From contig QPGO01000040.1 of the NCBI GenBank assembly GCA_008632985.1, positions 377,719 to 441,718 of the forward strand: DNA of 64,000 nucleotides, given 5' to 3'. This DNA comes from Psammoneis japonica. Its lineage: Eukaryota. The position numbers and the translations under genes are program-made. Below the pieces are notes generated by a model. The model was not told the origin of the DNA and ran no database searches. It was given only the letters and a program-made list of their open reading frames with translations. Of the stretch, positions 5,991 to 58,360 are shown in pieces (positions within the stretch are counted from its first letter, which is position 1; each line of letters opens with the position of its first letter).

Positions 5991-7205
5991 CTACCTTACG
6001 ATGAACCACCGTGCCTTAGTGTGTTCCAAGAGAATATCTATGCTCTCAAAACCTCCTTGAGAGAGCATCTCTTTTGCAACAGGCACTGAAAATCCCAGAG
6101 TACCAAGTCCTTCGCCGTCCTTGACGCATGTGGCACAAGCCATGCAAAGACAGAGCGAAAAGGACCAATACGAAGCAGCCGCAAAGGCGTCTTTGTGAAT
6201 ATTCTCACGAACCGTCGGAGCAGAAGGAATATCGGCCAACAACCAAACTCCGTTTGGAGCAAGTGCCTTGCGAACTTGAGCAATCAAATCACGGGGGTGG
6301 GGAACGTCGTGCAACACATCGAACGTAGTCACCAAGTCGTACGTTTCTTTCTGATCCCCCAAGGGCTCCGTATTTGCATCATGAACAAACACATTGGGCA
6401 GTTTACATTCTCTAATGTGACGCCTCGCAATCTCCAAGGCTTCCTGTGATACGTCATAGCCATGAAAGCTTGCTTTTGGAAATTGGCGAGCCATGGCAAC
6501 AATCAAGTTACCTCCGCCGCAGCCCAAATCGGCTACCTTGCAATTTCCCTCTTGCAACATTTTCAATACCCTCCCATTGTCTGCCTTTGGCACTACTTGA
6601 GCCAGGAATACATCTCGGATATGAATATTGTGGTGTCGATCAATAGCTTCCGACACATCTGTTTCGTTGTATGGGATTCCCATGCCAGTGCGGAAAGCTT
6701 GCGGCATCATTGTCTTGGCGCGATAAACTAAACTCGGTACAGCTTGAATCATGGGTATGGAATAGTCGCTTGAGGATGGATCTGCCATGACCTTGGCTGT
6801 AGCACTAGGAATACGATATCTTAAGCCATCGTCTGTATTTTCGTCGCCGGGAAGCAACGTAAGAATCCCCATGGCAGCTTGCTGAGCTAGCCATTCTCGT
6901 AACCACCGTTGATGGAACCCCGTAATATCGGCAAGCTCAACAGCAGTTACAGAAGCAGACTTTGATCCGCTACAAACATCAGCCAGCGACTTGTAAAGAT
7001 TTAACTTGTCTCCAATGTACAACCCCGACGATTGCAACGCAGACATCATGGACTTCTCCAGAATAGATTTTGATACAGAAGGATCCGTCTCGGGATCTTT
7101 TAGCCTCTTGGACCATTTCTCATACAGCCACACGACAGATCCTCCCAGCAGTGCACCAGTGCTTGCAACCGCCAGCAGCGTCGTCGAGTCAGAAGCTTTC
7201 GTCAT
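5991..7205 (-). CDS. Class I SAM-dependent methyltransferase with N-terminal winged-HTH (Rv2258c-like)
   Basis: VADLGCGGG motif I, FDVLHD, ELA..TG..RWLREWL HTH region, N-terminal hydrophobic anchor. Confidence 0.85.
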   Translation of the reverse strand: MTKASDSTTLLAVASTGALLGGSVVWLYEKWSKRLKDPETDPSVSKSILEKSMMSALQSSGLYIGDKLNLYKSLADVCSGSKSASVTAVELADITGFHQRWLREWLAQQAAMGILTLLPGDENTDDGLRYRIPSATAKVMADPSSSDYSIPMIQAVPSLVYRAKTMMPQAFRTGMGIPYNETDVSEAIDRHHNIHIRDVFLAQVVPKADNGRVLKMLQEGNCKVADLGCGGGNLIVAMARQFPKASFHGYDVSQEALEIARRHIRECKLPNVFVHDANTEPLGDQKETYDLVTTFDVLHDVPHPRDLIAQVRKALAPNGVWLLADIPSAPTVRENIHKDAFAAASYWSFSLCLCMACATCVKDGEGLGTLGFSVPVAKEMLSQGGFESIDILLEHTKARWFIVR

Positions 7206-7231
7206 GGCTCTATTATCTGTCTGTTCTTGTT

Positions 7232-7280
7232 ATGTCGGAGGGAGTGGAGTTCGCACGAAGCGAACTGCAAATTTTCAAAA
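7232..7280 (+). repeat. ~49-bp direct repeat, copy 1 (copy 2 at 15235-15285)
   Basis: atgtcggagggagtggagttcgcacgaagcgaactgcaaattttcaaaa vs atgtcggagggtgttcggagttcgcacaaagcgaacggcaaattttcaaaa. Confidence 0.9.
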
Positions 7281-7399
7281 TAATAATCATGAAGCGCCCA
7301 AGAGGTGCCTGCAACAGACAATGGTCAGTGTGCAGCCTGCATTGGATGGACGGGTTACTTTCACAAGCATGTGGCAGGAGTCAGTCCTCTATCGACCAC

Positions 7400-10150
7400 A
7401 TCGAAGGTTGCACCGCAGCCATTGGACTGCTGAAACCGGCAGGTCGTGAAACCAAACGCGACGTGTGTGTGTGAGTTTCCCGCCGTGTGCTTCCAAATGT
7501 GGAGCAGAACAATGACGTTCGTCTCGTTTTTGAGCTTCAAACAATCCCCAAAGCCGCAGCACCCAATGGGTTTGTGCATCTTCGACCCTGGCTTATGTCA
7601 GTTTTAGCAGCTAAGAAACAAGGGCTTCGTCGAAACAGGGGATTTGCCCTCTGCCTGCTGAAAGGCAGCAAGGGCGCCAATTGTCGTTTTCCAACAAATG
7701 GTCTTGTTTGCATCGACGACATCAAGCCGCCACCTCCATCCATCACTGGTGCCATTTTCTTTCAAATTGAGATGCTCTAGAACACCGGAACAGTGCGCCA
7801 AGAGGCTGAGCAGCGCCTCACCGGCACCACCACAAGCTCCCATTTGTCCGAGATTGACCCGTCTCAGATGAGTCGGCCTTGTCGAGTCACAAACCACACG
7901 CACAAGGTTGATGTGCTTTAGAGTCTTGTGACAGTGCCTCAAGAGGTCAACCACAGCCTCGCATGACTCGGCTTCAGAAATGCCGTTCTGGCCCACATCA
8001 AGCCGCTCCAACTTTGGCACTGTTGTTTCCAAGATTGCACATGCAAGAACCTTGCATCCTTTGTTGCCAATGTTGCAACCCGCGAGATCAAGTCTCATCA
8101 ATCCACCAACAATGGAGCTGAGCTCCTGGCAGCCCACGCTGTTGATGCGTTTGTTGTGCGAGAGGTCAAGAACTCGTGTTTTCGTGTGTGAAGCCTCACA
8201 AGCATTGAGCCTGAAGCATCACGTTCATCGGCATTTGTGGTGCTGAATCCTTGAGCAACAGCTTTGCACCCGGCGGGCCCAATGTTGTTGTGGGACAATT
8301 TCAGCATTTCCAATTTTGGCAAGCATCCTCGCATTGTGACATCCGCAACCTGACATGCTGTCATTCCAGTTGACCATTGTCGCCTTGAGCTCCGTCACAG
8401 AACCAAAATGGCGCTCAAAGTGTTCTTGATGCAGTCACACCACCAATGGACGATCGTCTTTTTGACATGTGAACTTGCAGTTCCCGATGGCATGCTCAAA
8501 CAACTCAGGTGACAAGGGGGATGTCATTGTTGAAGAGAGCGGCAGGCTTGGGTCAACCTCTCTGTGACGAAGATCAAAAATCTCTTCAAGTCCGGTGTGC
8601 TTCATCGCAGCCCAACAGGTTTCGGCAAAGCACCGCCCTCGATTGTCGTGCTGCACCGGGGTGCCGTCGGTGGGGAGACTGCAAGCATCGGGACAAGACG
8701 GCAGAAACTCTTGGACCGGATGGACTTTTGCACGTGGGTGTGAAAAGAAGGCACCCAAAAAGTTTGATCCCTTGCAGCATGCATGCAGACAAAAGGTCAT
8801 TTTTGTCACGCCCTTTGTGACATTTAAAGGCTGCAACACGTCGCCGTGATGCATTGACTCTCATCAGTGGCTGTGTGTTGCACTCCTCGGTTTTGGCGGA
8901 ACAGTGTGGGCACATGCGAAGGAACATGCAGAACTGCACAGAGTTTTGCGCGTTCGACAGTGATCAACGTTGCTGCAGACAACTCCCACTCAGGGTTTCG
9001 AACCCCTGGCCTCCTGCCCAATGGTTGCGAGATGAACCACTCCGCTGTGAATTCACAATGCAGTGTGCATGCAGACAAAAGGTTGTTTTTGTCATGCCCT
9101 TTGTGACATTTAAAGGGTGTGACACGTCGCCGTGATGCATTGACTCTCATTGGTGGCTGCATGTTGCACCCTGCTGGAAGAGTCCTTCTTCTTCGGGTGA
9201 ACGAAAGCATCCAATCTCTGGGTCTGGGTGCTGGAAGAGTGATGCATGGCCCCAGAAAACACCAAAAAGTGGACTTTCGGTTTGGCTCCTCATTTTGTGC
9301 TTGATGGCTCGAGCTGGCAGTTGCAGCATGGTCCCTTTTGGATCGGGGTGGTTTGGTTGCAGCCACACGCAGCTCAAGACAATGATGTTAAAATGCAAAG
9401 GAGTGCACGCGGCATCCACCACATCCTCCAAGCTGAGAAAAGCTTCCGGCAGAAGCTCTTGGCAAGGCCTCATCACTGGCATCTTCTCTGTGTCATTGAC
9501 AGCGCACTTGATGAGCCAAAGAGAATCAAGCAGTGCAGTGGCACCCGAACAGAGAGGTTCTTCCAATGAATCTCCAGAACCAGCAGTCCACAGCTCCTTT
9601 GATCGAGTTTCGTCTTCAAGAGCGCGACTGGCCAATCGGAGCTCAAACGCCTTTTGGCACATCAACCAAGCCTTTCGATCACACCCATCCACCTCTCCCC
9701 CTTTTCCTTTCTCGCAGCAAGTTGCTGCCCACAAAACACAGAGCCAATCGTTTTGGTCGGCTCCCAGTTTCCAATGCTGAATGGCGCGTTCCTTGTCCCG
9801 CTGGTTTTCGTAGAACGTGGCGAGCCAGCGGATTGCGTTTAGATTCCCTCTTTGTGCTGCTTGGCAGTGCAAGGATTCCGCCCGTCAATGGCCCCCTTTT
9901 CCTGCGTGCATTTTTGCCAGTTCCACGAGGCTCTGTGCTTCCTTGTCGTCAGTCTCCATCCTCCGAGTTGTGAAGCTCTGTTGTCATGTCGAACGCACCA
10001 TTGCAAACTCCATTGTCCATCAGCATGACAGCCGACAAATGCGCGACATTGCGACTCGTCGTGCGAGTGAAAATTGCTTTGTGTTGCGCGAGTGAACAGG
10101 GCACATTGATCATGACAAGAGAACATGCGAACCGATGAAGACACCAAGAT
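7400..10150 (-). pseudogene. Decayed Sel1-repeat / HET-like / RNI-type LRR gene
   Basis: Sel1-like AAQRGNLNAIRWLATFYE..AIQHWKLGA; IVLSCVWLQPNHPDP...GVFWGHASLFQ (family pattern LSYxW..HPDP..FWDYxSLxQ); LRRs LKLSHNNIGPAGCKAVA, LDLAGCNIGNKGCKVLA, LDVGQNGIS; multiple frameshifts. Confidence 0.65.
8778..9170. repeat. ~105-bp diverged direct duplication (8780-8883 / 9067-9168)
   Basis: gcatgcagacaaaaggt..ccctttgtgacatttaaagg..cacgtcgccgtgatgcattgactctcat..gttgcac present twice. Confidence 0.9.
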
Positions 10151-10246
10151 GCCATTGCTGGATGACACGCTAAAGGGGAGAGATGACATGGATGCCCATG
10201 GACACTTCACCCTGCACTTCTTGCCAATGGTGGTGGGAAAGACAAT

Positions 10247-10700
10247 GTGGAAGCATGGCTCAAATCGAGACATTGCTTGAACAACAGGTTGGCATCTGTG
10301 AGCAATGAGGCGCTCGGCCTGCTGCCAGCATTGGAGAACAATTGGGGCAAGTGGACGTGCACGCACGGCAGAACAAAGGAGGAGTTGGAGGTGCAAAAGA
10401 AGGCAGGCCGCATTCCAGAGGTGAAGTGCAGTGAAGGCAGCAAGAAGCAGGGCGATCAAATGAATCAAGTGCAAAAGGGTCAACAGGGTTTGAACAAGAA
10501 GGGACAGGAGAGATGCAAAAAATTGGGAAGTGCGATTGACCAAAAGAGTTGGGCAAAGACGCAGATGAGTGGGATGAGGTTTGGTTGAAACAGCTCTGGG
10601 AATGCATGGATGGGATGGAAGACAGCTGAGAGAACACAAGAGAGCAGTTGGAAGCAGCAGATGAAGAAGAGGAGAACATTGAGCACATGGATTTGTGGGC
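10247..10700 (+). mobile_element. Relic of a transposon-associated accessory ORF
   Basis: SVSNEALGLLPALENNWGKW resembles an SDEAF.LL..EN...W pattern I associate with diatom TE-linked ORFs; heavily mutated. Confidence 0.3.
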
Positions 10701-10949
10701 AGCAGACCCACCACAACAGGCAGCAGTTTGAACATTTGGCATCGAGTGGCAAATTGAAAACAAGTTGAATCAAGGAAATGGGTGCACCAACAATGAAGAG
10801 CAGGGAACACTGATGCATTGGTGCAGGGTGATCCAAAAATGAGGCTGCAGAGCAGAATTGTCCATGATGGGCACACATTGTTGATGAAGTCAACAAATTA
10901 AAAATTGGGCACGTGGGTGTCGCTTCGCTCGTTGCAATTTGGCAGAGAC

Positions 10950-11880
10950 CCAAATCAAACAAAATCAAAGGCAGCCCAAATTGTTTGATTGCCCCCCGGG
11001 CAAATTGTTCCCCACTCTGATGTGCAGTCGGTGCTGTCATGTGCTGCGCCACTGACATCATGGTGCTGTGACTGGCAGCAACATCATGACACAGCTTGAA
11101 TGGCGCGAACTTCAAAAGCCACAGCTGCAAGTTGTTGTGGCACTGAAAACTGCTGTGCACAGCTTGAGTGCTGACACAAAGCTCAACAGAAGCTGCTGTT
11201 CACGACATTGAAGAAAAATGCTGCACAAATGACCAGGCTAAAAGGGGCAAAGCATTGTCATCACTCTTTTGTGTCTGCAGCTCTGGGTGCACAAATCAAG
11301 CATTTTGTGATGAGCGCAATCTAGCAACTCAGCACAATGAATGCCCTGCCCACCATCAAACACATTGGCAGTTGTTTTGCTGGCATCTGGCTTGCTCCTT
11401 TCTTGGTGCTTTGTTGTTGGTGTGCCGCGAGGCAGAGAGCTTCTCTTGGAAGTGAAAAATGCCTCAAGCTTTGAGCAGTTGCTGTCCAATTTGCTTGTGC
11501 CCTCAGCTCCCACACCAAAACTTGACAATTGCCACATTCCATTGGGTGACACTGCTGGGGTTTTTTGTTGTGTTCACATGAGAAGCGAGAGGACCAATGC
11601 TGGATGTCGCTGCCAGCCAGGTGCATCTTGCCAGCGGCTCTGGAGCATGCAAAAAATCTGCAAGGTTTCTTTGTGCCAGAGGCTTGGCAATCTTGGCAAG
11701 TCCAAAAGACTTGGCAGCTGTTTTTGATTTCTTCTTTGCAGGCTGCGTCGTGCACCGCCAGCTCTTGAAGATCTTGTTCTCGGCTGTGAAATCCTCAGTT
11801 GGATGTGCGAGTTTGCTGCAAGAGAAACCATTGTCTCTTTTTTCGCATCCTTGCCTTGGCCACGTGCTGCACTTCCCCGA
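10950..11880 (-). mobile_element. Possible hAT-like transposase relic (BED-type zinc finger)
   Basis: FWTCQDC...KMHL spacing fits a BED finger; downstream HQSGEQFARGAIKQFGL resembles the hAT H(T/S)GENxA motif; no TIRs found. Confidence 0.3.
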
Positions 11881-12241
11881 TTGGGGCAAATGGCGTGTCA
11901 TTGAAATAAATTGTTCAAGCGGATAGAGATCGTTGGTGTGATGGTTGCGACACCCACCCCTGCACTCGGCGTAGAAATGCGCTCAAGAGAGAATTTGGGG
12001 GACGTGTACCCGCCGCGCCAGCTGCGCTGTTGCGGCTGAAAAAACGCACTGATTGACAGACTCTCTCAGCACCGGTACAAATTCTACACGATGAGATACG
12101 TCCCCGCCCGCCCAAAGAAATCCTTTTTTGGCTTCGGTCTCCGGTAAATAACGCGATCACTTATCACACTGCACACTGCATTCTACTCGGAATCTTTTTG
12201 ACACTCGACACCAACCTTCGACGCGATTCATCGTTGCTTCA

Positions 12242-14567
12242 ATGATGAGCAAAGCGGCATGGATTTTGCTTGCTGCACTTGTCGCCTTTGACGCAGCTTC
12301 AGCACAAAAACAAGAAAAACCCAACATTGTATTGATTGTAGCGGATGATCTCGATGCCGACGAGCTTGGAGTAACAGCTCAACAAACAAACATTTGGCCA
12401 ACTAACACAGGAGCTGGACGGCTCGGCTTGTGGACTCCAAAATATGATCCAAATGTCCTCACTCCACACATTGATTCCCTGGCAAAAGACGGCGTACTCC
12501 TGACCAAGTATTATGTCAGCAACACGAATTGCGCCGGAAACCGCTACGCTATGCTAACGGGACGGCAACCGACGCGTGGAGAGTACTTGCTACGCCACTT
12601 TCCTGCTGGGACTCTACTCAACTTGGGTTGGGAAGCGGGAATTCTGAGAAGCGAAACCAATGTTGCCAAATCCCTTCAAGCATTGGGATATAGGACTGGC
12701 GTTATTGGAAAGTGGCACAACATTCCCAAGAACGACTATGCCAAAGGCATTCTCCCTAGAAGAGACAAATCATATCATGAGGCGAATGTCAGCTACAATC
12801 GTATTCGGTCGGTTAATAGCGAACTCAAGGCTCATTATGACGCGCATGTGGCATACCTCAAGGATGGATATGGTTGGGATGTGGTGGATAGGATGGAATG
12901 GGGTGATTCCATTGTAAATTTACAGTGGCAAGCCCAAGGGGCTGTCAAGTTTATCAAAGAGAGCGCGAAGAAGAGCCCATTCTTCCTTTATGTTGCTCTC
13001 CCTGTACCACACGGTCAATATTTCTTTACATTTAACGATCTGGAGAGCTATGACGATCGAGTCACCTCCAGGGGGATCATCACTAAGGTGCCCAAGGTGT
13101 TGCCTCCTGTATTCAGCGTCTTTGCCCGTACGAGAGCGGCTGGTGTAAAGAAAGCAAATGCAATGGGCACCCGAATGGATGACTATGTTGGAGTGATTCT
13201 GCGAGAGCTAAAAGATTTGGGGTTGAGTGACAACACCCTCGTAATGTTCACGAGTGACCACGCAAGTCGCGGAAAGAACGGATGCTATTCTGGCGGTGCT
13301 CACGTGCCTCTTATCGCTCGATGGCCTCGAAAGATTCGCAAAAACACAAGAGTTGACTCCCTCGTGGCCAGCGTTGACCTAGCCCCCACGATTATCGATG
13401 CTGCGGGAGGAACCGCTCCCGCTGATATGATTGACGGGCATAGCTTCAAGCCCATGCTGTTGGGACAACCCGAACCGAAGGACTACCGGTCGAGCATTAT
13501 ACTTGAAGCACAGACTACTCGCGCCGTTGTCACGAAAAAATGGAGTTATATTGCGAACAGAGTGACCCCCAAGATTGCCAAGGCCATGGCAGAGAACCCT
13601 GGCGAAGTCTTTTGGTCTGGAGTCGACAGCCACAATTATAATAACGAGAGAAAATATCCTGCGTACTGGGATGCGGACCAGCTGTATAATCTTGAAACCG
13701 ATCTTTATCAGCAGGTCAATCTCGTCGCGGACAAAAGCTACAGTGCCCAGCTAACGTCTCTCAGGGCTGTGCTAGACCGGTACATTGCAACGACACGTCA
13801 CTCCTTTGGTGAGTTTGGAACCGGCATTTACCAGCTTGACGCGGGCGGTTCCCAACTTGAGCATGGACCACAGAGCACAATGTCGATTTTTTGGGATCTG
13901 AAGGTTACGCGAAAGGAAGCCTCAACGCCTCTGATGGTTGGGTGGGACATTGGAAAACTATATGGTGCACCCTGCGGGCCGAGGTTATCTGCAGCTGCCA
14001 AAAGGGAGACATGCACGCAACGTTGCCCTTATGAAAACTGGGCTTCCTCTTTCAAACAGATACGAAGTTGTGTTGGACTTTAAATTTGTACAAAAACGAG
14101 GTAGACTTGATATGGAGCGAGGTGTGCTCAAGGCTGAGATAAGAGAGCGGTTCAAGAACGGAAACGAGGGTAGCAAGCTGGGGATTTCTTTGATGCGATC
14201 AAAAAGCGGGCGTACATACTTGTTGCGGCTCGAAAATAGCATGGGTGCTGAAGCGTGGAAGGCCAGAGGCACGGTCTTCAATGAAGACCTTTTGGGTCTC
14301 GGTGGTACAAAGGACACCGCCCAGAGTGATCAACTGAGGCTCACTTTCAAAGTTGAGCGTGGTTCAGACAAAGGTGACTGGAGCGTTATCAGCACGATGG
14401 AAAATCTCGACAATGAGAAGGTCGTCTCTATTCTGACTCATACAGTGGACTCTTCTCAGGACTTCTATACTGATGAGATTCTATTCGCCGCTATTAATTC
14501 GGTTGACTCAGAGGATTCGTCGCTCTTGTTGGGTCGCACGGTTCAAAAGATCGCCGCAAGGTCTTGA
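12242..14567 (+). CDS. Secreted arylsulfatase-like sulfatase with C-terminal extension (apparent frameshifts ~13860-13945)
   Basis: Signal peptide; KPNIVLIVADDL, CAGNRYAMLTGR, GYRTGVIGKWH, NTLVMFTSDH, VPLIARWP, DLAPTI, QLYNLETD; intronless. Confidence 0.88.
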
Positions 14568-31244: not shown

Positions 31245-31312
31245 CTCTCTTCCGCACCACTTACAGACCTCCCAGTTTGCTCTCTTCCGCACCACTTACA
31301 GACCTCCCAGTT
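31245..31312. repeat. 33-bp direct repeat, period 35
   Basis: ctctcttccgcaccacttacagacctcccagtt at 31245 and 31280. Confidence 0.95.
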
Positions 31313-31314
31313 GG

Positions 31315-34300
31315 GAGTGGACCTCGCAGTCTCGTTTTTGCATGAGAGTCCTCAATGTGGTGGATGCAAAGTGGTGTGGTGCAAGGGGATGAAACTGTGG
31401 AAGATTGTGGCAACAGTTTGGACCATCAACTCGAATTTCAAAAAAGCAACACAGTTCTTTCTTGTGAGCAACAAATCTGCTTTTCAGGTGATGAGAGCGC
31501 AGACACATCGCACAAGCAGCGGACCCTGTCAATCTTGCTCAGCACCATCAACTCTGCTTGGGTGTTGTCATTGCATTTGTCACAATTGTCAACAACAAAC
31601 ACAGACTCTTTGAAGATTGACTCTTCACTCATGGATTGTGAGAGCACAGCGGTGCTGTGGAAGTTCCATGAAAGCCGCTTCCACAAAACCCGCATTTGGT
31701 GTGGCTGAGATTCATTTCAAGGGACTCAAGCTGAAGTGCAACAATTGCCAAAGCACATGGCACCACAATGACATTAAATGCAAGGAGACATGATGCAGCA
31801 AAAGTGTGCAAGTGAGAAAAGCATTGCAGCGACAAGTGCGCAGATCTGTGTCTCCATGGAGCGAGGGAGGCCTGTCGCAATTTCTTGTCAAAAGAGCCCA
31901 GGTGTTTTGTTGTGATGTTCTTGTTCTTCTGCAGCATTGACTCACCTTGCCAAGGACCCAACACAGATTTCAAAATGTCAATCACTGCATGCCAAAGAAG
32001 ATGAGTGCATCTCAGCTGCACCTGCAGAGCGACACCAACCGATTCTTGCTTTTTCCATGCCGGACTTCACCACAGCAAAATGCCAAAAGAATTGTTGCTG
32101 CAGCTGCATGAAGAGGGGACAAAAATGCCCCACAGGCCAAATGGTGGCAGCAAGACATGTGTCGCACTTCCTGTGCCTTGTCGCCAATGTCGCTTCTCCC
32201 AGTGTCACAACCACATTCCAAGTCAACAGCGATCTGCCACTTTTTTAGAGATGTGTCACACCCAGTCTGCCAGCCTCTCAAGAACACAATGGACTTTCTG
32301 CATGTCAAGTGCAACAGCTTTGGTTTGGCAATCTTTGCAGTGCACACCAACATTCCACCAAGCAACGCTGTCATGGCACAACCCTTTCTTCATGAAGTCC
32401 TCCCTCACGGCCAGTCTTCTCTGCCGCATCCAAAGTTGACTTGTTTCTTTCAGGAGAGTGAAGCCATGGCATTGGCAAAGCCATTTGTCCCATGATCCTC
32501 ACAGTTTGGGCAGTCTCAGCAACCAGCAAAAGATGCAAGTGTGCCTCTTTCCACATGCATTTTTCATGCAGTGCTTTTTGTTCTGGACCCTGGAAGGAAA
32601 ACTTGAAAAACACTGACAGCTCCCTTTGCACCCCCTGAAACCATGAATGCTCACCCCTGTCAGCACCATGTCTGAGATCTTCACACAGGAAAAATTTCTT
32701 CATGACCCTGGAGATGCACAGATCAAAGTCCAAGCTGGTTTGCAGGGGTGCTTTTTTCCAAACAGATGACCTCTCATTGGCCAACTGCAACATGGCAGGG
32801 TGGTCCATTTGCCACGCAAGCACCATCTTCTTGGTCAAAGATGCTGACAACAATGGGGGTCTCCTGGCATCCCATTCCAAGACATTCATGCCACAAAACA
32901 TGCAAGCCTTGTCATTGTCGCCCAACGTGCTTTCCATGTCACTTGATGCAACATCAACTTTTTGCAGGCACTTGGCACCTGCTGTTGGACTGGGAGTGGG
33001 AGATGGCACAGGAGAGTCTTTCTTTTCTTCTGGCTGCATGCCATGCAGTGCATTTTCTGATTTTTTTTATTTGCTTTGCACTGGGGCAACAAAAGGAACA
33101 TCAGGTTCAGGAACTCCATCCATTGCAGTGCATTTGCTGCTGTCCTGGTCATTCAACCAACAGATTCACCACTGTTGTAACATGTCAGGATGCCAAGAGG
33201 AGTGTTCACTCTGCAAACACCTTGCAAGTGCAGCAATTGGTCACAAACCTTTGCAAGTGTGTTGGGATGCTCCACTGCATCCTTTCCAGGTTGTTTGCCT
33301 TTGATCATTCCAGTTGGACAATGACTCACAAGAATCAACATGAAGTCTGGATGGTTTCTTGTTGCCTTCACTTCTTCACATGAATTGTCACCTCCTTTCA
33401 AATGCCCAGAGATTCCAAGATGTCAATGACAGCTTCTTTTCACATGACTGTTGACATCATCTGCTTCACTTGAATGTCCCCAAAGAGTGCCAGTCTTGCT
33501 GACAACCTGGTTTCATGCATTGGTTTTGGGGTGGGACAGCTCTCCCAAATCAGATGGGACAACAAAGCTGGAAACCTGGAGATGGGCGACTGCATGCTGC
33601 TCCTCCTTTGGTGCCAATGTGTTAGATGTGAACTTTGCAGTCTCTGAGAGCGGCCCCAGTTCCAGCAATCCATGTGAGAAAATGCAATCCAGCTGCTTCT
33701 GATCCAACAGCTCAGGCTGGTCTTTCAACCCACATTGAACAACCCACAAAGCAAGTTCACCCCAGATGGTGCGCTTGCCCAAACTGCAAGCATCAAAGAA
33801 TTCTTCTCTTTTCAAAACTTTCACTCTCCCCAAGCGATGCTTCCACAATCCATCTGGAAGTCAAAAGGGCTTTCACAAGTTGCAACTGTGCTCCCATCTG
33901 GGCCAGTCAGTGTGCTCAGCTCTGATTCATTGTCTGCCATTGTTGTTGTTGCAATGGGTTGTGGTGATGAAGAACTTGCCAAGTGGCTTGGGCGCACAGC
34001 CCATTTGGGGAACGGTTCTGCCACATGACCATGCATGGTTTGAGCCCAGTCAAGCACAGGCTTGGGAAAGTCCAAATGGTTGGGTTCCTTGGCACACACA
34101 CACAGGGCACCATGTCGCATCTTGGACTGGCATCAGCAGACACATTTGGTGCAGCAATCCAGCAGGTGGCCTTTGCAGGGTGCTGTGCAGAAGCTGGAGA
34201 GAGATGTGATGGCTGCAGCAAAATGTTGATGCAGCTGAGTGATGCAGCCCATTGCATGCTCACTGGACACTCTGTTGCAGGCATCATCCATTTCCTCAAC

Positions 34301-36990
34301 AAGTCTCCGGCCAATTGTTTCTCCAAGAAACAAGCCACAGTCAAGACTGCAATGCATGGATCTGAGTTTGTTGCACAGCTGCTTCCACATCATTGCTGCA
34401 TGTTCTGAGTTGCAGTTTCACAGATGACAGATGGGCTGATTGGGTGGGGCCGGTGGGTGCACGGGTTGGTTCTCAGCCCTTTCATCTGCCTGCAGAACTT
34501 GCGTGGCCTTGTGGTGCAACCCAAATCTCTGTAAATTCAGCACATTTTGCCCTGCAGAACAATTTGGGGGAGTGTTTTGGCTTGTGGCTCTCTCAAAATG
34601 ACACGCATGATGACACAGACAACAGCATTTCACCAATTTCAAAAACATGGTCATCTCTGAGGCACTTTGTTGTGCACTCTCAATGGAATGTCACATGTCA
34701 CAGCATGGGATGACAGGTTCATGTGGGCAGCTGATGTGGTGAAAAATCTTGTTGAAGATCTGTGCTGACAATGTCACCACCACTGTCTGTTGATGAGCCT
34801 TGCGTGCCACCACCATTCATGCTGTGTGATTCATTGTGGCTTGTCATGGCTGCTTTGATCCCACTTGCATGTTGTCTTTCTGTTTTGCTCTTTTGTTCTG
34901 CACAAGAGTCTCCATTTTGTTGTGGGGTGTCCCTGAGATGGACTCAATGGGCAAGAGTGTTGCCTCTGCATTGCAATGGCTGTGGCAATCCAACAAAAAG
35001 GCTGAGCCACAGACACAGCATCAGGAAGAGTCAACAACAAATGTGCTGACTTGGAGCTGTGGCATCTGAAGCTGAACAAGCTCTCTCAAGAGCTCCAGTC
35101 AGTCACCACACATTTTTGGCTGGAGCTTGCCCTGCCTCCACAATGCTCTGATGCTGAGTTTCATTTGGCAGACAAATGCATCATGGTGGTTCTGAAGTTG
35201 TGGATTGTCTTTTTTGGCTGCAAGGCAATTTACAACCCAGCAGAAATCTGTGAATTGTTTTGCATCATTTGTTGGCCACTGCTGCAATGTCAGGAATTGT
35301 GGAGTGCTTGATTGACAATCCACTGCACTCCCAGCTTTTGGACTGCAAAAAAGCAACCACACTGACCTTGTTCTGCCATGAAGGAAACTGATGAGTTGTT
35401 CTTGGCTCACCTGTGTTCAAGAACCCAACTGAACGACCTGTTGGACAGCCACACCTGAGTGCAAGCTGCATTTCTTGATTTTCAGTGGATCTTGCATTTT
35501 GCATGCCTTCTGTCATTCAATGCCAGCTGGATTGTCATGCTTTCTGCTTTCCATGGTGTGTGGCAGAAATGCACATGGGAGGCTCTGGATGGTTTCTGCC
35601 CAAAAAGTGCACAGCATCATGTGATCACCAAACCACCAGCAAATTTGAGACCCTGCTGTGATCACTTGATCAATCTTGATCTCCTGCTCCACCACTTCCA
35701 CTCCTGTGGGAGGTGCCTGCTGAGTTTGATGGAGGCAGTGGAAAGATCACATTTGAACAACTGTGGGGCCAATGAATTTCTCTTTGTCTTGGTTGACAAA
35801 CTCAGCTGCCCATTTGGCTTGTGATGCCATCCTCTTTTGGTTTTTGAGTTGGTCAAAGAAAGAAAAATGATGAATCATGTTCTCTCTCACCCAGTGCTGG
35901 CACTCTGCAGATTTTTCTTTTTTGGTGCGCAAATCTGGGAAAGCCAGCATTGCCAAAGAACAAAGTCTGGGTGTGTGACCGGTGCTCCACCTGCTGCCCC
36001 TTGGAGCCAACTTGTGACTTAAAAAACCCGGGTGTGGCTGGTGCAGAGCAGGAGAAAAGGCACACTCAAGCCAGCAGTCTGCAGCCTCTTCGTTTTAACC
36101 CTGTGCAGGCCCCCACAGCTTTGACTGTGATTTTGCTGGAAGAAGCAAGTTCGCAGCACAAACAGCCACAGCTTTGATGACCCCATGATGGCAATCATTG
36201 GCAGAGTTCTTCTCTGGGTGGGGTGTTTTCGTCACAGGCTCAGGGAGTGTCCAATGACAAGCTTTTGTGAGCCTGCATGCCATGGTGGGCAGTGTGCTGG
36301 AAAGACACATGGCAGCAGCTGCGGCCATGTCACAGCAAAAACTGACTGCAGCAACGGCAAGGCACGCTGCTGGCCAGCGCTGGTGGCTTCTATTTTCTCA
36401 AATGCCCCCAGGAAAAAAGAGGCAAACATCTGCTCATGCTGGGCCAGGTGCATCATGCAAAACAAATTTTGGCTGGCTGCGCCAGCAGCCCATTTTCCAA
36501 ATGGTTGTTTTGCCTGCATTGTCTGCACAGCATGGCCAAGAAGACACTGCCCACTTGCAGCAAGTCACCAGCAAGCCTCAATTGCCAGCATTGCTTGTGA
36601 AAAATCTGCACCTGGCAAGTTCTGCAGCTTGGACTTAACCTGGTGCAGCTGTCTTGGAAATGCACCATTGCCCTTTGTTGGCTGGCAGCACACCGGGCTC
36701 CCTCGCATGCGGCAAAGTGTGCGCACCAACTGGTGGTGCAGTGTTGGTGTTGTCATTGCACCATTGGCCAAGATGTGTTCATTGGACTTGCTCAAATGAA
36801 AAAAGAAAATGAGTTGCTCCCTTTTGTCCATTGGCTTTGTGATTGACCGGGCGACCTTTGACCCCATCAAGTCTGCTGGCTTGTTGTGACACACGTTGAG
36901 AGGGCAGGTGATGCTGGCACTGGTGGAGCATGGCCATTGGGGCCAGCTCCTCAAGGATCTTGTGCTGGATCCTCTCCGGGGGCTCCTGTT
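31315..36990. other. TpA- and CpG-depleted hypermutated island 2 (nested TE relics)
   Basis: TA nearly absent, CG scarce, TG/CA dominant; dense spurious Cys/His/Gln-rich ORFs in all frames. Confidence 0.92.
34025..34380 (+). mobile_element. Ty1/copia (CoDi-like) LTR retrotransposon RT-end/RNase H fragment
   Basis: DAAHCMLTGHSVAGIIHFLNKSPANCFSKKQATVKTAMHGSEFVA matches copia RNase H D.AH...TGRSVTG....N.TPI.W.SKKQ.TVETATYGSEFVA. Confidence 0.85.
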
Positions 36991-37340
36991 GTACACTGCT
37001 TTGCAGGAGTCGTCGCAACGTCTGTTGTCACAGATCGGGGCGGGCAGCGGGCAATGGGAAGCGAGGAACTTGGTGCAGTAGTCGCAAAAACGGCAGTTTG
37101 TCTGAAGACCCACTGAACACAGTTGTACATAAGCCTTAGAAATTAACGGGAATGAATTGAAAATGTCACAGATCCAAATTGTTCTTATTGATTGATAGTA
37201 ATGGGCCGTTGGGTCCTGTGCAATTCGCCACCAGAATTTTTTCTCTGCAGGGGTGAACTCACACAATCAGGCAAGTGCCGGTTCAACGGTTGGGCAACGA
37301 CCGAGTGTGAACTGTGATAAGTCACCACCTTCGCCGGCTG

Positions 37341-45980: not shown

Positions 45981-47491
45981 AAATTCATTCTCAAGAAACT
46001 CCGCTTGCCATGGTCTTAATATTCGTCTAGTGGGTACTGCTGATCGCTTGGTCCTATTGCGATATTCTCATCGTCTTCCTCTTGTTGTCGACCACAGGTA
46101 CATACGACATATCGAGGTAAAAAGAGATTCACATCCTGTGGTTTGAGTGCACGGAGTGACTTTTGACAAAAGCATGTTGTCTCCTGCTGTTGCTCCTGTT
46201 CGTGGTTTGCTCTCTCACGACCTGCTTGTCGAGATTTAGACTTGTGCTTTCGTTGTTTCTCTCGTCTTGCTCTGTCATCGTCTTTATGATGCTCCCTATC
46301 GTCTTTCGATGTTCAGTTTTGTGTTTTCGTTCCTTGTCACGTTTTGGTTTTGATGCCGCTGCTTTGTCCTTTGAATCACGTTTGTTGTTTTTGTCCTTTC
46401 TCTGCTCTCCTTTTTTGTTTTTGAACCCTCATGATGCGACGGCTTTTTTCGCCTCTCTTTCTCAGCTATTGGCTTGTCGCTTTCTCGTTCGCCTCCCATT
46501 CGTTCTGGATTGTCATTCATTAGCGCATACATGGTTGCATTGCATACAAAGGATCATGCAGTGCTCCTGCCTCCTGCTGTCAGTCGTTTGTTAGCAACGA
46601 ACTTTTTTTCTGGCACAACGGAAGTCTGGCACACAAAATGTCTCGTGGAAGTAACCAGGGCACTTATGATGGGCAGTAGTCATTTTCATCTTACTGAAAA
46701 AATTAGGCTTTTTTGGACATTCGGAAAAACTATGGGCAATGTTATATGACCTCTTGTAAGATCATTGGTTATTGCCGGGCATAATGTCATTGACAACCAG
46801 CGTAGCGGTACTGTCGACGGTACTGCGTGCAACGTACAGTTGGTAGTGACATCTTTTTCTTGTGGTAATGACTGCGTTGAGTCATTGGTCATCGAGCTCT
46901 TGAAGCATGAAATTAGAGATAGAATGGTGATTGAAAAAGGCCTTCTTGATGAGATAGTAGCGGCATTTCCAATGCGATGCCCGTGTTAAACAAAAGGTGT
47001 GAGCAATGCCGGGATATTCGAATGAAGTCCATCTTTGTCTATTCTAAAGAATTTCTTGCGGACTTGCCAAGTATCTTCGTCGCATTAGTTTCTGTGATGC
47101 TCTGTTGGGAAGAGATCGCCAGCTCAGTACCGCGTCTCTACTAGAGAGAGCTACTAGTAGAGAGGGGCGGGCAAGACGTGACATTGGATGCTGGATGCAT
47201 GGTGCAGACGGGCTGGTTTTCGAAACCAAATATCTCAATCAATCAATCAACACAACGATTACTAGTTAGTGCTAGTGCACCTTAAAGGTTGCAGATTCAA
47301 ATCTAGTTCCATAGCCGTCAACACACATTATCAGAATCTAGCTCCAGGACACAGCTACTAGCTATAGTGAATACAAGCAAAAAGGAATTGGGGACTGCAG
47401 CAATGGGTTATCCATCCTGTCCTCTCTCCTCTAATGGTGTGTAAGTGCATTATACAAGGTTGGATCTTTCGTCGATGGAGGGCAACGCGAT

Positions 47492-48001
47492 CTATACCAG
47501 GCCGATTCCTTTTACCTCTTGCTCCGCCTCAGTTTTGCTCTCTGTCTCGTCATGAGGTAAGTTTCTCAAATAGCTAATGATAGTAAGAAACAACCAAAGA
47601 GTGCTTGCGCCTAAAGCAAACCCCGTCAATAACCCAAAGTATACGAACTCTGGGCTGCCCGAATGGCCGTTGTACCAGCAGTTTCCGTCAAGTGGGTAAA
47701 AGTGCCACGTGTATCTTCCACTGGGTGAATTTTGAACAGACCTGGAGCACAGCGTGGCCAATAGGAGGTACATGCCAAAGAAGCTCACGGCAAATAAACA
47801 CACCACGACTTGATAGAGTGGACGACCCCAGAGCGTCCGTCGGTAGTATGGCTCCTGGCTGTCTTGTGAAGGGACAAACGAATCTGCGTTAGTTGCCGAA
47901 ACGCATCCCGCGCAGCAGCCCATCGGGCAAGATATGCAAGTACAACAACACAATCCCATGGTTCGTTTGAGTGGCTGCGGTTGTTGTTCTCGTTTTGACA
48001 A
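47492..48001 (-). CDS. Small two-TM membrane protein with Cys-rich N-terminus, tandem copy A
   Basis: Paralog of 48400-48963; two hydrophobic segments; C-terminus GIGLV. Confidence 0.65.
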   Translation of the reverse strand: MSKREQQPQPLKRTMGLCCCTCISCPMGCCAGCVSATNADSFVPSQDSQEPYYRRTLWGRPLYQVVVCLFAVSFFGMYLLLATLCSRSVQNSPSGRYTWHFYPLDGNCWYNGHSGSPEFVYFGLLTGFALGASTLWLFLTIISYLRNLPHDETESKTEAEQEVKGIGLV

Positions 48002-48399
48002 CTCTTGTGTATCTTGACACCCGCTTGAGTCGTGAATTGCGCACTATCCTGTTTTGCTTCGCGCACTCTCGACTCCTCTCGAGAAATGCAAGAGTCCAAC
48101 CTTGAAGCACAATGACATTAACAAGGAACGATTTCTTCATAGTAACAGCAGCATCATGTCCCATGCGTGTCGTGTGATTCCGAAATCTCAAATCAAGACT
48201 ACGGATTCAACCTCGAAAAATAGCTGTATACATATTATTAGAATCTAGCCCCAGGACGCAGCTCCTAGCTATAGCGAATACGAGCAAAAAGGGATCTGGG
48301 ATGGACAACCTCCTGCCCTCTAAAGTATCTCTTAATTGATGTGTAAATAATAATGCATTATACAAGGTTGGATCTGTCGTCACTAGAAGGTAACGCGAT

Positions 48400-48963
48400 C
48401 TATACCAGGCCGATTCCTTCTTCCTCTTGGCCCACCTCAGCTTTGCTCTCTGTCTCATCATGAGGTAAGTTTCTCAAATAGCTAACGATGACAAGAAACA
48501 ACCAAAGAGTGCTTGCGCTTAAAGCAGCCACCGTCAATGACCCAAACTCTTCGTGGGAGTTGCCGTCGAGTGGGTAAAAGAACCACGTGTATTTTCCACT
48601 GGGTGAATTTTGAACAGACCTGGAGCACAGCGCGGCCAATGGGAGGTACATACCAAAGAAGCTCACGGCAAATAAGCACAACACGACTTGATAAAGTGGA
48701 CGACCCCACAGCGTCCGTCGTCGGTAGCATGGCTCCTGGAAGTCTTGTGAAGTGACAATTGCATCTGCGTTAGCTGCAAAAGCGCATGCCATGCAGCAGC
48801 CGCAAGATATGCAAGTACAATCATAACAACACAATAGCAATGCCAGCATGGTTCGTTTGTGTGCCTGCGGTTGTTGTTCTCGTTTTGACAACTTCACCTT
48901 ATCTTTGATCTTGACACCCGCTTGAGTCGTGAATTGGGCGCTATCCTGTTTGGCTTCGCGCAC
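48400..48963 (-). CDS. Small two-TM membrane protein with Cys-rich N-terminus, tandem copy B
   Basis: Shares RRTLWGRPLYQVV, LCSRSVQNSPSG, SYLRNLPHDETESK with copy A; flanks also duplicated; true start uncertain. Confidence 0.65.
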   Translation of the reverse strand: MREAKQDSAQFTTQAGVKIKDKVKLSKREQQPQAHKRTMLALLLCCYDCTCISCGCCMACAFAANADAIVTSQDFQEPCYRRRTLWGRPLYQVVLCLFAVSFFGMYLPLAALCSRSVQNSPSGKYTWFFYPLDGNSHEEFGSLTVAALSASTLWLFLVIVSYLRNLPHDETESKAEVGQEEEGIGLV

Positions 48964-49365
48964 TCTCGACTCCCTCTCGACAGGTAGTCGAGGTCATCAT
49001 CCATCAGGTCCATCAGCCGCCCTCAACGTCGATTAAAACCAACCTTCAACGGTCGAGAGTCTAACCTCGAAGCACAGTGGTATTCACAGGAACGATATCC
49101 TCATAGCAACAGCATCATCATGTCCCATGCGTGTTGGGTGTTGGGTGTTGGGCGCGATGATTCGATTCCTTCAGCTGTGTGCGGATTTGAAAGACAGTTT
49201 CATAGTTTTCGCGCTTTATTTTCTGGCGCGCGATGACGTACGTGATGAGTAGTCTAATTGACCAAAATAAAAGATCTGGATGACATGAACTGGAACGCTT
49301 CCTCATCATCTTGCCGGTAAATCACCCCATCGCTCCCGACCGGAGTCTAAGCATAGGCACTGACC

Positions 49366-51501: not shown

Positions 51502-51785
51502 CCGCACCTGTAAGTCGCCATGAGAACCCGTAGAAAACGCCATGTCTTACAGCTACAGGGGGGAAACATAACCTGCTGTATCTGTAAGCGGAATGATTTC
51601 CGCTCGTACAAATTCTACGTGATTTCCCCGTGCACCGTCGCTTGCGGGTCGAATCAGAACTCCGAAGAAATGATGTGTGAGAAGCAAATCCCGTGACACC
51701 TCTCTCGCGACAAAAAACACACATCAACGCATTCTCACGATGCTCTAGTCATAACAAGTCATAGCATCCATGCAACACATCTGTC

Positions 51786-52844
51786 ATGCCTGGTGGACAG
51801 CCACAGAGTCACAAGTTGTCATGGGCATTGAAAGAGTTGAAAAAGAAGGAGAGATCTGGCGGCTCCGGTGGCGCTGACGGGGAAAAAAATGCGAGCGGTG
51901 CTGGTGGCATTTCTGCGCTCGATGTTGACAGGCCAGCCCCGCATTTGACCATGGATGGAAAAGAATCAACTCTTGTGGAAATGACAAATCTCCCAATCGA
52001 TCTTACGGAGGATGAAAAAGTTGACATCATCAACAAGGAGAAGGGAGTCACGAAAAAGCCGAAGCTTCCAAACTTGCTGGCTCCTGAGAACGAGGCCTTG
52101 TTGCGTGATCTGCTGCAAATCACACAAGCAGCAAAGGCAAATCAGCATGTCAAGCACACATCCAAAAATGCAACCACATCTTCAATCTGGCAGCCAATCA
52201 TGGACGAGTTCTGTGACCCACCTGACGGCCCTGCACGTGGCTGCGCCAAGCCAGATGGTGAGCATGCGGCGCGCACCTTCAAAGAAAAGTGCTGGAGTGT
52301 CATGAAATCATTGGCGAATTTTGCCAAACAGAAGAAGGAAGAGGATTGCTCCCCGTGTGAGGTGTCTGCATTGTTCATGTGGAACGAGCAGCAGGAACCA
52401 GTCAACAAAGACAAAGAGACCAAGTCGGAAGCAATGGCCTTGCAGAAGGAGAGGGCAGCTGCAAATGCTTCATGTGAAGCAAAGCCAAAGCTTGAGCCCC
52501 CACCTCCATTCACAAAGAAGCGCCCAGTCCCAAGTGCAGCTGTCAATCCATCTGAGAGGCCTGATGGAAAAGTGCCGGGGGAGCCGAGGTCAAAGGACCG
52601 TGTGCTGGATTTGGAAAAAACTCAAGACAAGGCAGACGAAGTCTTGAGCGGCATCAAAGCTTTTTTGCCATCCAAGGAAGAGATTGGAGAACTCAACAAG
52701 CGCAAGAAGAGGAAGCTTCAGCTTGATGCAATGGCGTCTGTGGCAACAATGATCACGCAGGGCAGGGATGCGGGTCTCGACGTTTCAAGGTTTGAAAAGC
52801 ATTTCAAGCACCTGCAAGACGAGTTCTTCGAAGACCAAGCTTGA
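51786..52844 (+). CDS. Transposon accessory ORF (putative Myb/SANT-like DNA-binding partner), hypermutated
   Basis: 352-aa open frame inside the TIRs, convergent with the transposase; W-containing helical region and coiled coil; contains no Tyr. Confidence 0.65.
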   Translation: MPGGQPQSHKLSWALKELKKKERSGGSGGADGEKNASGAGGISALDVDRPAPHLTMDGKESTLVEMTNLPIDLTEDEKVDIINKEKGVTKKPKLPNLLAPENEALLRDLLQITQAAKANQHVKHTSKNATTSSIWQPIMDEFCDPPDGPARGCAKPDGEHAARTFKEKCWSVMKSLANFAKQKKEEDCSPCEVSALFMWNEQQEPVNKDKETKSEAMALQKERAAANASCEAKPKLEPPPPFTKKRPVPSAAVNPSERPDGKVPGEPRSKDRVLDLEKTQDKADEVLSGIKAFLPSKEEIGELNKRKKRKLQLDAMASVATMITQGRDAGLDVSRFEKHFKHLQDEFFEDQA

Positions 52845-52954
52845 AAGAGATGAGGCTTTGCTTGGCACAAATTAGGACACATGTTGCATGTCGCCACAAC
52901 AACTTCAGAGCCATTTAGAAAAAAATCTGTGGCCTCTCACAGTGCATGCTAAGC

Positions 52955-54048
52955 ATGACGACCCCGCAAAGTTGCGCGCCAAATTCCCAGTGCGTTAAAA
53001 TGAGCCAGGCGTTGCTCCAGAAGCAATGGGAATTTTGCAACAACAAACAGTGTTAACGTCATCTAAAGAACGAGAGCTTTCTAAATGGTGTCTTTTTCAT
53101 TTCCATGCCCCCATCAGATCCGAATCGGCGTCGAGACATCCAGACGACCCCGCAGTTGCACGCCAAAATCCTGGTGCGTTTTGCTCAAACAGGCGTGGCT
53201 TTAAAAGCACTTGGAATTGTGGGACAATCAATGGCAGCAACATTGTCTACAGAACAAGAGCTTTCTAATGGTGTCTTTTTTATTTCTGTGCCCCTGTCAG
53301 ATCCGAATCAGCGTTGAGATGTCCAGACGACCCCGCAGTTGCGCGCCAAAATCCTGGTGCGTTTTGCTTAAATGGGCGTGGCTTTAGAAGTGCTTAGAAT
53401 TGTGGGACAATCAACGGCAGTAACATTATTTACAGAACGAGAGCTTTCTAATGGTGTCTTTTTTATTTCTATGCCCCCATCAGATCCGAATCGGCATTGA
53501 GATATCCAGACGACCCCGCAGTTGCGCGCCAAAATCCTGGTGCGTTTTGCTGAAATAGGCGTGGCTTTAAAAGTACTTAGAATTATGGGACAATCAATGG
53601 CAGCAACATTATCTACAGAACAAGAGCTTTCTAATGGTGTCTTTTTTATTTCCACACCCCTGTCAGATCCGAATCAGCGTTGAGATGTCCAGACGACCCC
53701 GCAGTTGCGCGCCAAAATCCTGGCACGTTTTGCTTAAATGGGCGTGGCTTTAAAAGCACTTAGAATTGTGGGACAATCAATGGCAGTAACATTATCTACA
53801 GAACGAGAGCTTTCTAATGGTGTCTTTTTTATTTCCACACCCCTGTCAGATCCGAATCAGCGTTGAGATGTCCAGACGACCCCGCAGTTGCTCGCCAAAA
53901 TCCTGGTGCGTTTTGCTGAAATAGGCGTGGCTTTAGAAGTACTTAGAATTATGGGACAATCAATGTCAGCAACATTTTCTACAGAACAAGAGCTTTCTAA
54001 TGGTGTCTTTTTTATTTCCACACCCCAATCAGATCCGAATCGGCGTCG
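52955..54048. repeat. 183-bp tandem array, ~6 units, inside the transposon
   Basis: cagacgaccccgcagttgc at 53141, 53324, 53507, 53690, 53873 (exact 183-bp period) plus a degenerate unit at ~52957. Confidence 0.97.
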
Positions 54049-54141
54049 TTCAGGAAATAGAAGCGCTAAGAGTTTCGCAACAATGCATGACATAAAGATA
54101 AAAGAAGCTACATTCTATGCTGAGTTTGTAATAACACAGAT

Positions 54142-57949: not shown

Positions 57950-58360
57950 TCATGGTGATTTTGACCCAGAGGATGCACCAGCACTGTCCCACCACTCTGA
58001 CAGCAGGTGTGCTGGGGTGGTGGACCAAGCTCGCAGCTGAGCTCTTTCCGCAAGCAAGTTGTGTGGCTGGAGAAGAGTGCATCATGGAAAAAACAGTTGA
58101 TGCTCATGTTTGCTCCACATGCTGTTCAAAACTGCAACCTCCTTTGCAGAGCCTGCAGAGAGTGCAAGAGGCACCAAGTCACTTGCAGAGAAGCATGTGT
58201 GCCAAGCCAACACAGCGTGATCCTTCTTTTGTGCAGTTGAGGCTCCTCCAGATGAGGCATCTCCAGGACTCCATCCAAGTGTGACCTGGGTTAAAGGCCA
58301 CCAGCCAGGACAGGATGATGCCACACCTTTGGAAGCTCTGCCTCTCAAAGCTGTGGAAAA
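57950..58360 (+). mobile_element. Non-LTR retrotransposon RNase H relic
   Basis: VTWVKGHQ..QDDATPLEALPLKA resembles the WVKGHQD...L...A motif of LINE RNase H; upstream LSHHSDS resembles (Y)xDS. Confidence 0.5.

Follow-up and report, generated by a model that had tools for sequence, protein, structure and literature searches.

We analysed a stretch of 64,000 nucleotides of the genome of Psammoneis japonica (GenBank assembly GCA_008632985.1, contig QPGO01000040.1, positions 377,719 to 441,718 of the forward strand), hereafter the window, for tracts that have lost nearly all their TA (TpA) dinucleotides and for the bases that flank the few TA sites still left in them. The window reads as part of a compact eukaryotic genome with long, tightly packed open frames, and the Pfam domains in these frames include Cid1-type poly(A) polymerase, RING finger, protein kinase, sulfatase and pyruvate dehydrogenase E1. 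The genes are interrupted by four tracts, termed islands here and delimited by TA gaps, in which TA is near-absent, CG is lowered and CA/TG is raised (Table 1).

Table 1. Islands, remnants and repeats in the window (O/E, observed/expected)
Feature	Positions	Strand	Properties
Island 1	7391-11906		TA 14 observed, 270.6 expected, O/E 0.052; CG O/E 0.58; TG+CA O/E 1.62; contains 7590-11330
LRR_6 leucine-rich-repeat (LRR) gene remnant	7607-8394	-	inside island 1; LRR_6 E=4.3e-10 and 8.3e-4
High-copy repeat	8610-9242	.	inside island 1; summed contig depth 35,876-95,579 vs ~57 in flanks (public run X1)
111-bp direct repeat, copy 1	8773-8883	+	surviving TTTAAA at 8823-8828; 89% identical to 9059-9169
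111-bp direct repeat, copy 2	9059-9169	+	surviving TTTAAA at 9109-9114
Island 2	31298-36991		TA 11 observed, 369 expected; CG O/E 0.17; TG+CA O/E 1.85
Island 3	51763-52872		TA 1 observed, 63.8 expected; CG O/E 0.57
183-bp tandem array, 5.4 copies	52957-54054	+	beside island 3; TA per unit 4, 4, 10, 9, 8, 8
PIF/Harbinger-type DDE transposase remnant	54145-55847	-	two overlapping frames; spans left edge of island 4
Island 4	54640-59416		TA 11 observed, 278.7 expected; CG O/E 0.37; left part is the transposase remnant

Across the four islands the O/E of TA ranges from 0.016 to 0.052 and that of TG+CA from 1.51 to 1.85, and TA density is 2.3 per kb as against 39 per kb in the rest of the window, flanking genes included; relative to this background the islands have a TA ratio of 0.06 and a CA/TG ratio of 1.47. 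The gain of TG in the islands (34.6 per 1000 tetramers) is close to the 33.3 predicted as half of the TA loss (18.3) plus half of the CG loss (15.0), thus the island composition is as expected from TA-to-TG/CA together with CG-to-TG/CA changes. The intactness of A-runs, from which the earlier note on this DNA leaned towards a TA-specific agent, holds throughout the islands: AA/(AA+AG) is 0.545 inside and 0.549 outside, AA amounts to 76.8 and 76.0 per 1000, respectively, and AA-to-AG change is not elevated. Change at A:T pairs in the islands is that of TpA to TpG or CpA, with other A:T changes nearly excluded. It falls on foreign or mobile DNA, the islands holding the transposase and LRR remnants and the high-copy repeat, and the adjacent genes are spared; the origin of most of the island sequence is not identifiable.

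Neighbours of the surviving TA sites

The region 7590-11330, to which the earlier note referred, contains exactly 14 TAs, against 223.5 predicted from its base composition (O/E 0.063). The claim made there, that the surviving TAs are mostly YTAR (Y, pyrimidine; R, purine), is confirmed. All 12 places listed are present and all are YTAR (TTAG three times, CTAA three times, CTAG twice and TTAA four times), and island 1 is free of GTAC, ATAT, GTAT and ATAC, as had been stated; two survivors, TTAT at 7594 and GTAG at 9811, had been overlooked. The resulting YTAR proportion of 12/14 exceeds both that of the TAs outside the islands (332/1866, 17.8%; p=6e-8) and a within-island baseline of 0.235 taken from the flanks of TG/CA (p=1.6e-6). 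Independently of that region, YTAR accounts for 6/11, 0/1 and 6/11 survivors in islands 2, 3 and 4, respectively, jointly 12/23 (p=1.9e-4), which brings all islands to 24/37 against 332/1866 outside (Fisher p=5.6e-10), or to 21/32 after trimming 300 bp off each island end. Survivors of the opposite type, RTAY, occur only at 55078, 55102 and 55771, all in the left 1.2 kb of island 4. The survivor rule is therefore solid, and it can be sharpened: TAAA/TTTA makes up 23 of the 37 survivors and 230 of the 1866 outside TAs (p=3e-12). When neighbouring bases are counted in both orientations (Table 2), A is protective at +1 as well as at +2, G shows no enrichment at +1, and C and T are depleted; oriented TAAA and TAAB (B, not A) stand at 26:15 in the islands and 240:514 outside (p=6e-5).

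Table 2. Bases following the A of TA, both orientations counted
Base	+1, survivors	+1, outside TAs	+2, survivors	+2, outside TAs
A	55%	20%	57%	28%
G	23%	24%	18%	20%
C	15%	30%	18%	25%
T	7%	26%	8%	27%

Normalised to the TA+TG+CA+CG total that the islands hold for each flank, survival is 0.35 where the 3' dinucleotide is AA and at most 0.12 for each of the 15 others. Among tetramer classes, under two ancestral baselines, it is 0.49-0.60 for TTAA, 0.17-0.18 for CTAA/TTAG, 0.06-0.07 for GTAA/TTAC, 0.055-0.06 for CTAG and at most 0.03 for all other classes, so that the difference between NTAN contexts persists after normalisation. In a per-strand model, where the doses contributed by the two strands depend on the base following the A, the fitted cumulative doses are 0.34 for A, 1.44 for G, 2.16 for C and 2.88 for T, and the additive model reproduces all 10 tetramer classes. 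Four doses fit better than a flat model (p=3e-12), a purine/pyrimidine model (p=1.6e-4) and an A-versus-rest model (p=0.008). The 5'-TAY-3' target preference proposed in the earlier note is thus a fair summary of a real neighbour bias, since the purine/pyrimidine model clearly beats the context-free one (likelihood ratio 38.9, p=4e-10), but at an equal number of parameters (two) A-versus-rest fits better (negative log-likelihood 19.8 vs 23.7). The main effect lies in the resistance of TAA, which is strongest for TAAA, TAG being intermediate, and this describes the data better than a preference for TAY.

The possibility that there was no differential erasure, i.e., that the island ancestors were rich in TTAA and TAAA, that the TAs arose later or that they were kept by selection, bears directly on this rule, and we consider it very unlikely. 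It draws on the ancestral sequence being an assumption and on two tyrosine codons of the transposase remnant that were kept at columns invariant in 6/6 homologues. Against it, all single substitutions by which the present island sequence could gain a TA were simulated under four spectra; such new TAs would be YTAR in 24-27%, TTAA in 1-7% and TAAA/TTTA in 12-16% of cases, as against the observed 65%, 32% and 62%. Newly arisen TAs cannot produce the survivor pattern. Ancestral richness would require about one third of all TAs to have been TTAA, and the survival of TAAA stands out even when normalised to its own flank totals. Moreover, the bias recurs across separate islands (island 3 holds a single survivor, which is not YTAR), and the two copies of the 111-bp direct repeat keep the same TTTAAA while differing at four places by CA versus TG. 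These four differences point to editing after the duplication if the ancestor was TA, a CG ancestor being also possible. As evidence on the choice of strand they were set aside as uninformative, with both outcomes present by construction and the same ambiguity of ancestor.

Content and age of the islands

The LRR remnant, the transposase remnant and the high-copy repeat are, as far as their sequence tells, the only part of the islands that can be named. The LRR remnant matched 317 representatives at E<=1e-3, with identities of 28-43% among the matches listed (150 of 317), and had no homologue in the search among longer proteins. The transposase remnant matches DDE_Tnp_4 at 54145-54804 (E=4.5e-7), and its frame at 54552-55847 has six homologues of 27-38% identity. 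Nine columns of this frame have tyrosine in at least four of the six homologues, and they now read histidine three times (CAY), cysteine twice (TGY), tyrosine twice, and leucine and lysine once each; tyrosine to histidine and tyrosine to cysteine are the most frequent replacements over 104 well-conserved columns. We regard these replacements, which are read from an alignment, as direct evidence of TA-to-CA/TG change after the gene was formed. At identities of 27-43% the relatives of both remnants are too distant for codon-by-codon ancestry outside the conserved tyrosine columns. The last two tyrosine codons of the transposase remnant (55077-55079 and 55101-55103, minus strand) are both TAT after G (GTAT), a context expected to be edited; selection on the still active element may have retained them, or this younger part of island 4 may have received a low dose.

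The high-copy repeat is not labelled a short interspersed element (SINE), because searches of the window for tRNAs and for Rfam families found none. When metagenome contigs were scanned with 21 bases of the repeat, one contig was retrieved, which was otherwise dissimilar to the window and had ordinary TA content. The summed depth of run X1 is also 3-6 times that of the flanks (~57) at 10087-10719 (183-367) and at 12197-12800 (209-227), which suggests that island 1 and the beginning of the sulfatase gene contain additional sequence of moderate copy number.

Of 116 island frames of at least 80 aa that were scanned, the 112 other than those of the named remnants had no Pfam match at E<=0.001; three matched above that value, all below the curated cut-offs and likely by chance. 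In island 2, the open reading frames of at least 80 aa gave no Pfam match at E<=0.001 and two weaker ones, far under the curated cut-offs and likewise probably due to chance. Island 3 is approximately one open frame (359 codons), for which no homologue was found at E<=0.001 among proteins of 197-629 residues. Long open frames in the edited tracts lie at 51765-52841 (+, 359 codons), 9842-10897 (-, 352 codons), 54552-55847 (-, 432 codons) and 56164-57069 (-, 302 codons). Such frames arise because erasure of TA removes the stops TAA and TAG and cannot create them, and gene callers may report them as spurious long proteins lacking tyrosine.

The two units of the 183-bp tandem array that lie nearest to island 3 are half eroded, with 4 TAs each against 8-10 in the others. 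Elsewhere in the window, a 0.8-kb direct duplication (47311-48176 and 48220-49140, ~80% identity) has normal TA content, and 21 of its 143 mismatches set TA against TG/CA. Within the window, duplication by itself thus seems insufficient to set the process off.

The comparison of the window with run X1 bears on the age of the erasure. Outside the high-copy repeat, 35 differences are listed, 34 of them within island 1; 21 are changes of CG to or from TG/CA, 12 are of other kinds, and the remaining two complete TG-versus-CA pairs (10537/10538 and 11219/11220) beside CG-type places, where the ancestor may be TA or CG. No unambiguous TA event is found among the differences listed at island 1, and most of them concern CG, which argues that TA erasure in island 1 was complete before the two sequence versions diverged, while CpG decay continues. 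None of the 40 differences listed falls on a survivor; the listed run X1 contigs cover 11 of the 14 in island 1, which is not proof of identity. A run X1 contig over 6500-8801 shows 10 listed differences plus insertions and deletions, all in island 1 (7573-8526); the same comparison has 36 gap letters, with listed deletions of 25 bases, 6 bases and three of 1-2 bases and an insertion of one base. The stretch 6500-7572 (1,073 bases), which belongs to the methyltransferase gene beside the island, has no listed difference, and island 1 diverges much faster than this gene.

The loss of CG to TG/CA in repeats, the footprint of methyl-CpG decay, is seen in island composition as a CG O/E of 0.17-0.58. 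Since CG varies this widely between islands in which TA is equally gone, TA erasure saturates well before CpG decay. The CpG loss is itself flank-dependent, with survival in palindromic classes of 0.43 for ACGT and 0.36 for TCGA against 0.72 for CCGG and 0.57 for GCGC.

Side of the neighbour and competing explanations

The earlier note reasoned that a palindromic TA escapes only if the A on both strands is followed by a purine. This logic is sound, but survivors alone cannot tell whether the base 3' of the A (TA-Y) or the base 5' of the T (R-TA) is read, because both rules give the same predictions once the two strands are summed. We therefore used the products of editing: a mixed site TTAC/GTAA becomes TTGC if the A before C is hit and TCAC if the A before A is hit. 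The island total of TA+CG+TG+CA for each flank pair was taken as conserved, with core proportions from the background, and the share is the fraction of sites resolved towards the written strand, given also after adjustment for GC dinucleotides (Table 3). The share of TAC is 0.77-1.04 over three assumptions on CG strand choice, which leave the direction of the test unchanged, and 0.53-0.88 after the baseline correction. A product test on the raw background had inflated the TAC effect, GC dinucleotides being enriched in the islands regardless, and was replaced by the flank-sum and dinucleotide-adjusted baselines.

Table 3. Resolution of mixed sites in the product test
Site	Contexts compared	Share	Corrected share
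ATAC	TAC vs TAT	0.83	0.66
CTAC	TAC vs TAG	0.96	0.88
TTAC	TAC vs TAA	1.00	0.53
ATAG	TAG vs TAT	0.51	0.46
ATAA	TAA vs TAT	-0.05	0.22
CTAA	TAA vs TAG	-0.34	0.04

Reading of the neighbour on the 3' side is likely on the evidence of this product composition under the assumed ancestry. Provided that the baseline is fair, the test shows that the changed base pair is the one adjoining the non-A neighbour, whether the A or its paired T is the chemical target. The alternative, an agent with a preference for R-T-A that Y-T-A, and most of all T-T-A, slows down, is in our judgement quite unlikely. It predicts the survivor counts equally well, and the edits in unit 0 of the tandem array, which fell in TAA contexts, speak in its favour. 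It is contradicted in the three classes for which the two rules diverge most, by TTAC, which went to TTGC (share 0.86-1.1), and by ATAA and CTAA, which went almost wholly to ACAA and CCAA (share at most 0). The combined statistic comparing the 3' side with position -2 favoured the 3' side in 2000 of 2000 bootstraps with the flank-sum baseline and in 398 of 400 with the adjusted one, and it was positive in island 1 and in islands 2-4 separately. The direct events also lean towards the 3' side, by 10 to 4, which is not significant (one-sided binomial ~0.09, by our own reckoning). Both informative tyrosine codons of the transposase were resolved on the TAC side. At 8916, 8928 and 8948 of the high-copy repeat, all of them TAC sites, the window has TG where 18%, 74% and 37% of the run X1 depth has TA, so that all three agree. 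In unit 1 of the array, five of five informative changes follow the hierarchy. The direct events are mixed, and the choice of strand is not yet confirmed by them.

We propose that the islands are best explained as a whole by a neighbour-dependent, TpA-specific A:T-to-G:C erasure of repeat and transposon DNA whose survivors are the slow sites, and we give this explanation an even chance of being right. The islands would be derived from repeats and transposons, and the process would have converted about 95-98% of their TpA to TpG or CpA, with a slower CpG decay superimposed. The A of TA would be converted fastest before C or T, more slowly before G and several-fold more slowly before A, above all before AA. 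A single hit on either strand would destroy a site, and consequently only sites that are slow on both strands would persist, i.e., TTAA, TTTA/TAAA and YTAAA, the junctions of T-runs and A-runs. We infer the rates, the 3'-side neighbour and an adenine deaminase as the agent, the signature being the same for a deaminase and for an agent acting on the paired T.

Several observations weigh against this explanation. The tetramers that the process could not touch show GC dinucleotides enriched 1.2-1.4-fold in the islands, and the ancestral composition is an assumption; after the GC correction only two of the six product classes are nominally significant (CTAC, P=0.016; CTAA, P=0.036). The products rank TAC above TAT, whereas the survivors rank TAT at or above TAC. 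Unit 0 of the array, at the border of an edited tract, has six TA-to-CA changes and no TA-to-TG change; three of the six lie in TAA context, while the edited strand retains an intact TAC and an intact TAG site. With shared states collapsed, five array events agree with the 3' reading and four disagree. TAA is thus slow and not immune, and editing seems to occur in strand-coordinated runs able to override context. The survivors number only 37 and come from one 64-kb window, and selection may have shaped some of them, as the two retained GTAT codons, invariant in all six homologues, indicate.

Erasure by a context-blind mutator is another candidate, the bias then stemming from repair of an inosine:T or modified-T mispair, or from a DNA structure or chromatin at short A/T tracts that restores or shields TAs; we regard it as unlikely. 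In its favour, the protection reaches +2, as the comparison of TAAA with TAAB shows, and thus resembles an effect of a tract as much as that of a single pocket, and the CpG decay in the islands depends on flanks as well. Against it, TpA steps where a T-tract meets an A-tract are flexible and unstack easily, so that editing would be expected to be increased at such junctions and not reduced.

Relation to known mutators and deaminases

Among known mutators, polymerase eta has the motif WA, in which A is mutated after T or A, and it is excluded by the undepleted AA of the islands, in line with the leaning of the earlier note. Repeat-induced point mutation (RIP) of ascomycete fungi introduces dense transitions into repeats, with CpA becoming TpA, which raises TA and creates stop codons. 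The process in the window resembles RIP in that dense, dinucleotide-specific transitions are limited to repeated or mobile DNA. It differs in that TA is removed, as the TA and CA/TG ratios of the islands to the background (0.06 and 1.47) show, TAA and TAG are lost and long open frames remain; furthermore, two repeats in the window, the 80%-identical 0.8-kb pair and most of the 183-bp array, keep normal TA.

The closest system is that of Bigelowiella natans, where Mettrop et al. (bioRxiv 10.64898/2026.01.13.699255) describe TpA-restricted hypermutation of integrated giant-virus and virophage DNA, with 231 de novo TpA mutations in culture lines and a measured rate about 1000 times the background, and propose an adenine deaminase, with a homologue of ADAT2 from the eukaryotic ADAT family as the candidate. 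As described in the preprint, that process shares with the one in the window the A:T-to-G:C change at TpA only, giving TpG or CpA, its location in foreign or repeat DNA and a footprint poor in TpA and rich in CpA+TpG. Its targets are viral DNA, whereas here they are transposon and repeat remnants in another lineage, with near-saturated erasure and superimposed CpG decay. The main text of the preprint contains no analysis beyond the dinucleotide (the words context, flanking, trinucleotide and tetranucleotide have zero occurrences), and its supplements may hold flanking sequences. TpA erasure itself is therefore already published for B. natans, and the neighbour-context rule appears to be new.

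This rule can be compared with the preferences of adenosine deaminases acting on RNA. Bacterial TadA edits mRNA off-target at the motif UACG (PMC10027721). The earlier note had given a U-A-C context for the TadA family; the agreement extends to the T/U required at -1 and to the C at +1, as TAC prevails over TAT, TAG and TAA in the product test, and it fails for TAT, which by survivor count is erased at least as fully as TAC (dose 2.88 for T and 2.16 for C). TadA, moreover, works on RNA, at hairpin loops. In Fusarium graminearum, adenosine-to-inosine mRNA editing attributed to ADATs has U at -1 in 85.7% of sites, UAA and UAG as preferred triplets and a +1 order of A (39%) ~ G (37%) > U (17%) > C (7%) (PMC4817773). 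It shares the strong -1 U, but its +1 order is nearly the reverse of the C~T > G >> A found here, where A at +1 is protected (55% vs 20%; dose 0.34). For human ADAR, the +1 order quoted in the same source is G > C ~ A > U, and for ADARB1 G > C > U ~ A, with U favoured at -1 (PMC4817773). The A-to-G change and the -1 U are common to ADAR and the window; here, however, G is intermediate, with a dose (1.44) below those of C and T, T is among the most erased (sites with TAT on either strand make up 5/37 survivors and 856/1866 outside TAs), and AA is not depleted, while ADAR also edits after A at -1.

The order C~T > G >> A at +1, with A at +2 adding protection, thus disagrees with ADAR and with fungal ADAT-linked editing and agrees only in part with TadA. 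We hypothesize, as a doubtful but testable idea, that the survivor rule could be the fingerprint of a dedicated DNA adenine deaminase directed against mobile DNA, with a preference like that of TadA (UAC) and unlike that of ADAT2/3 or ADAR. If so, this would shift attention from the ADAT2 homologue proposed for Bigelowiella to a distinct deaminase, possibly gained by horizontal transfer, and mobile elements could escape only by placing their essential TAs in TTAA or TAAA. Edited tracts could be recognised by an index that combines the O/E of TA with the proportion of TAAA among the TAs left. Only one account of the TpA-erasing process has been published so far, its enzyme being a candidate, and a neighbour rule is the cheapest means of discriminating between candidate enzymes.

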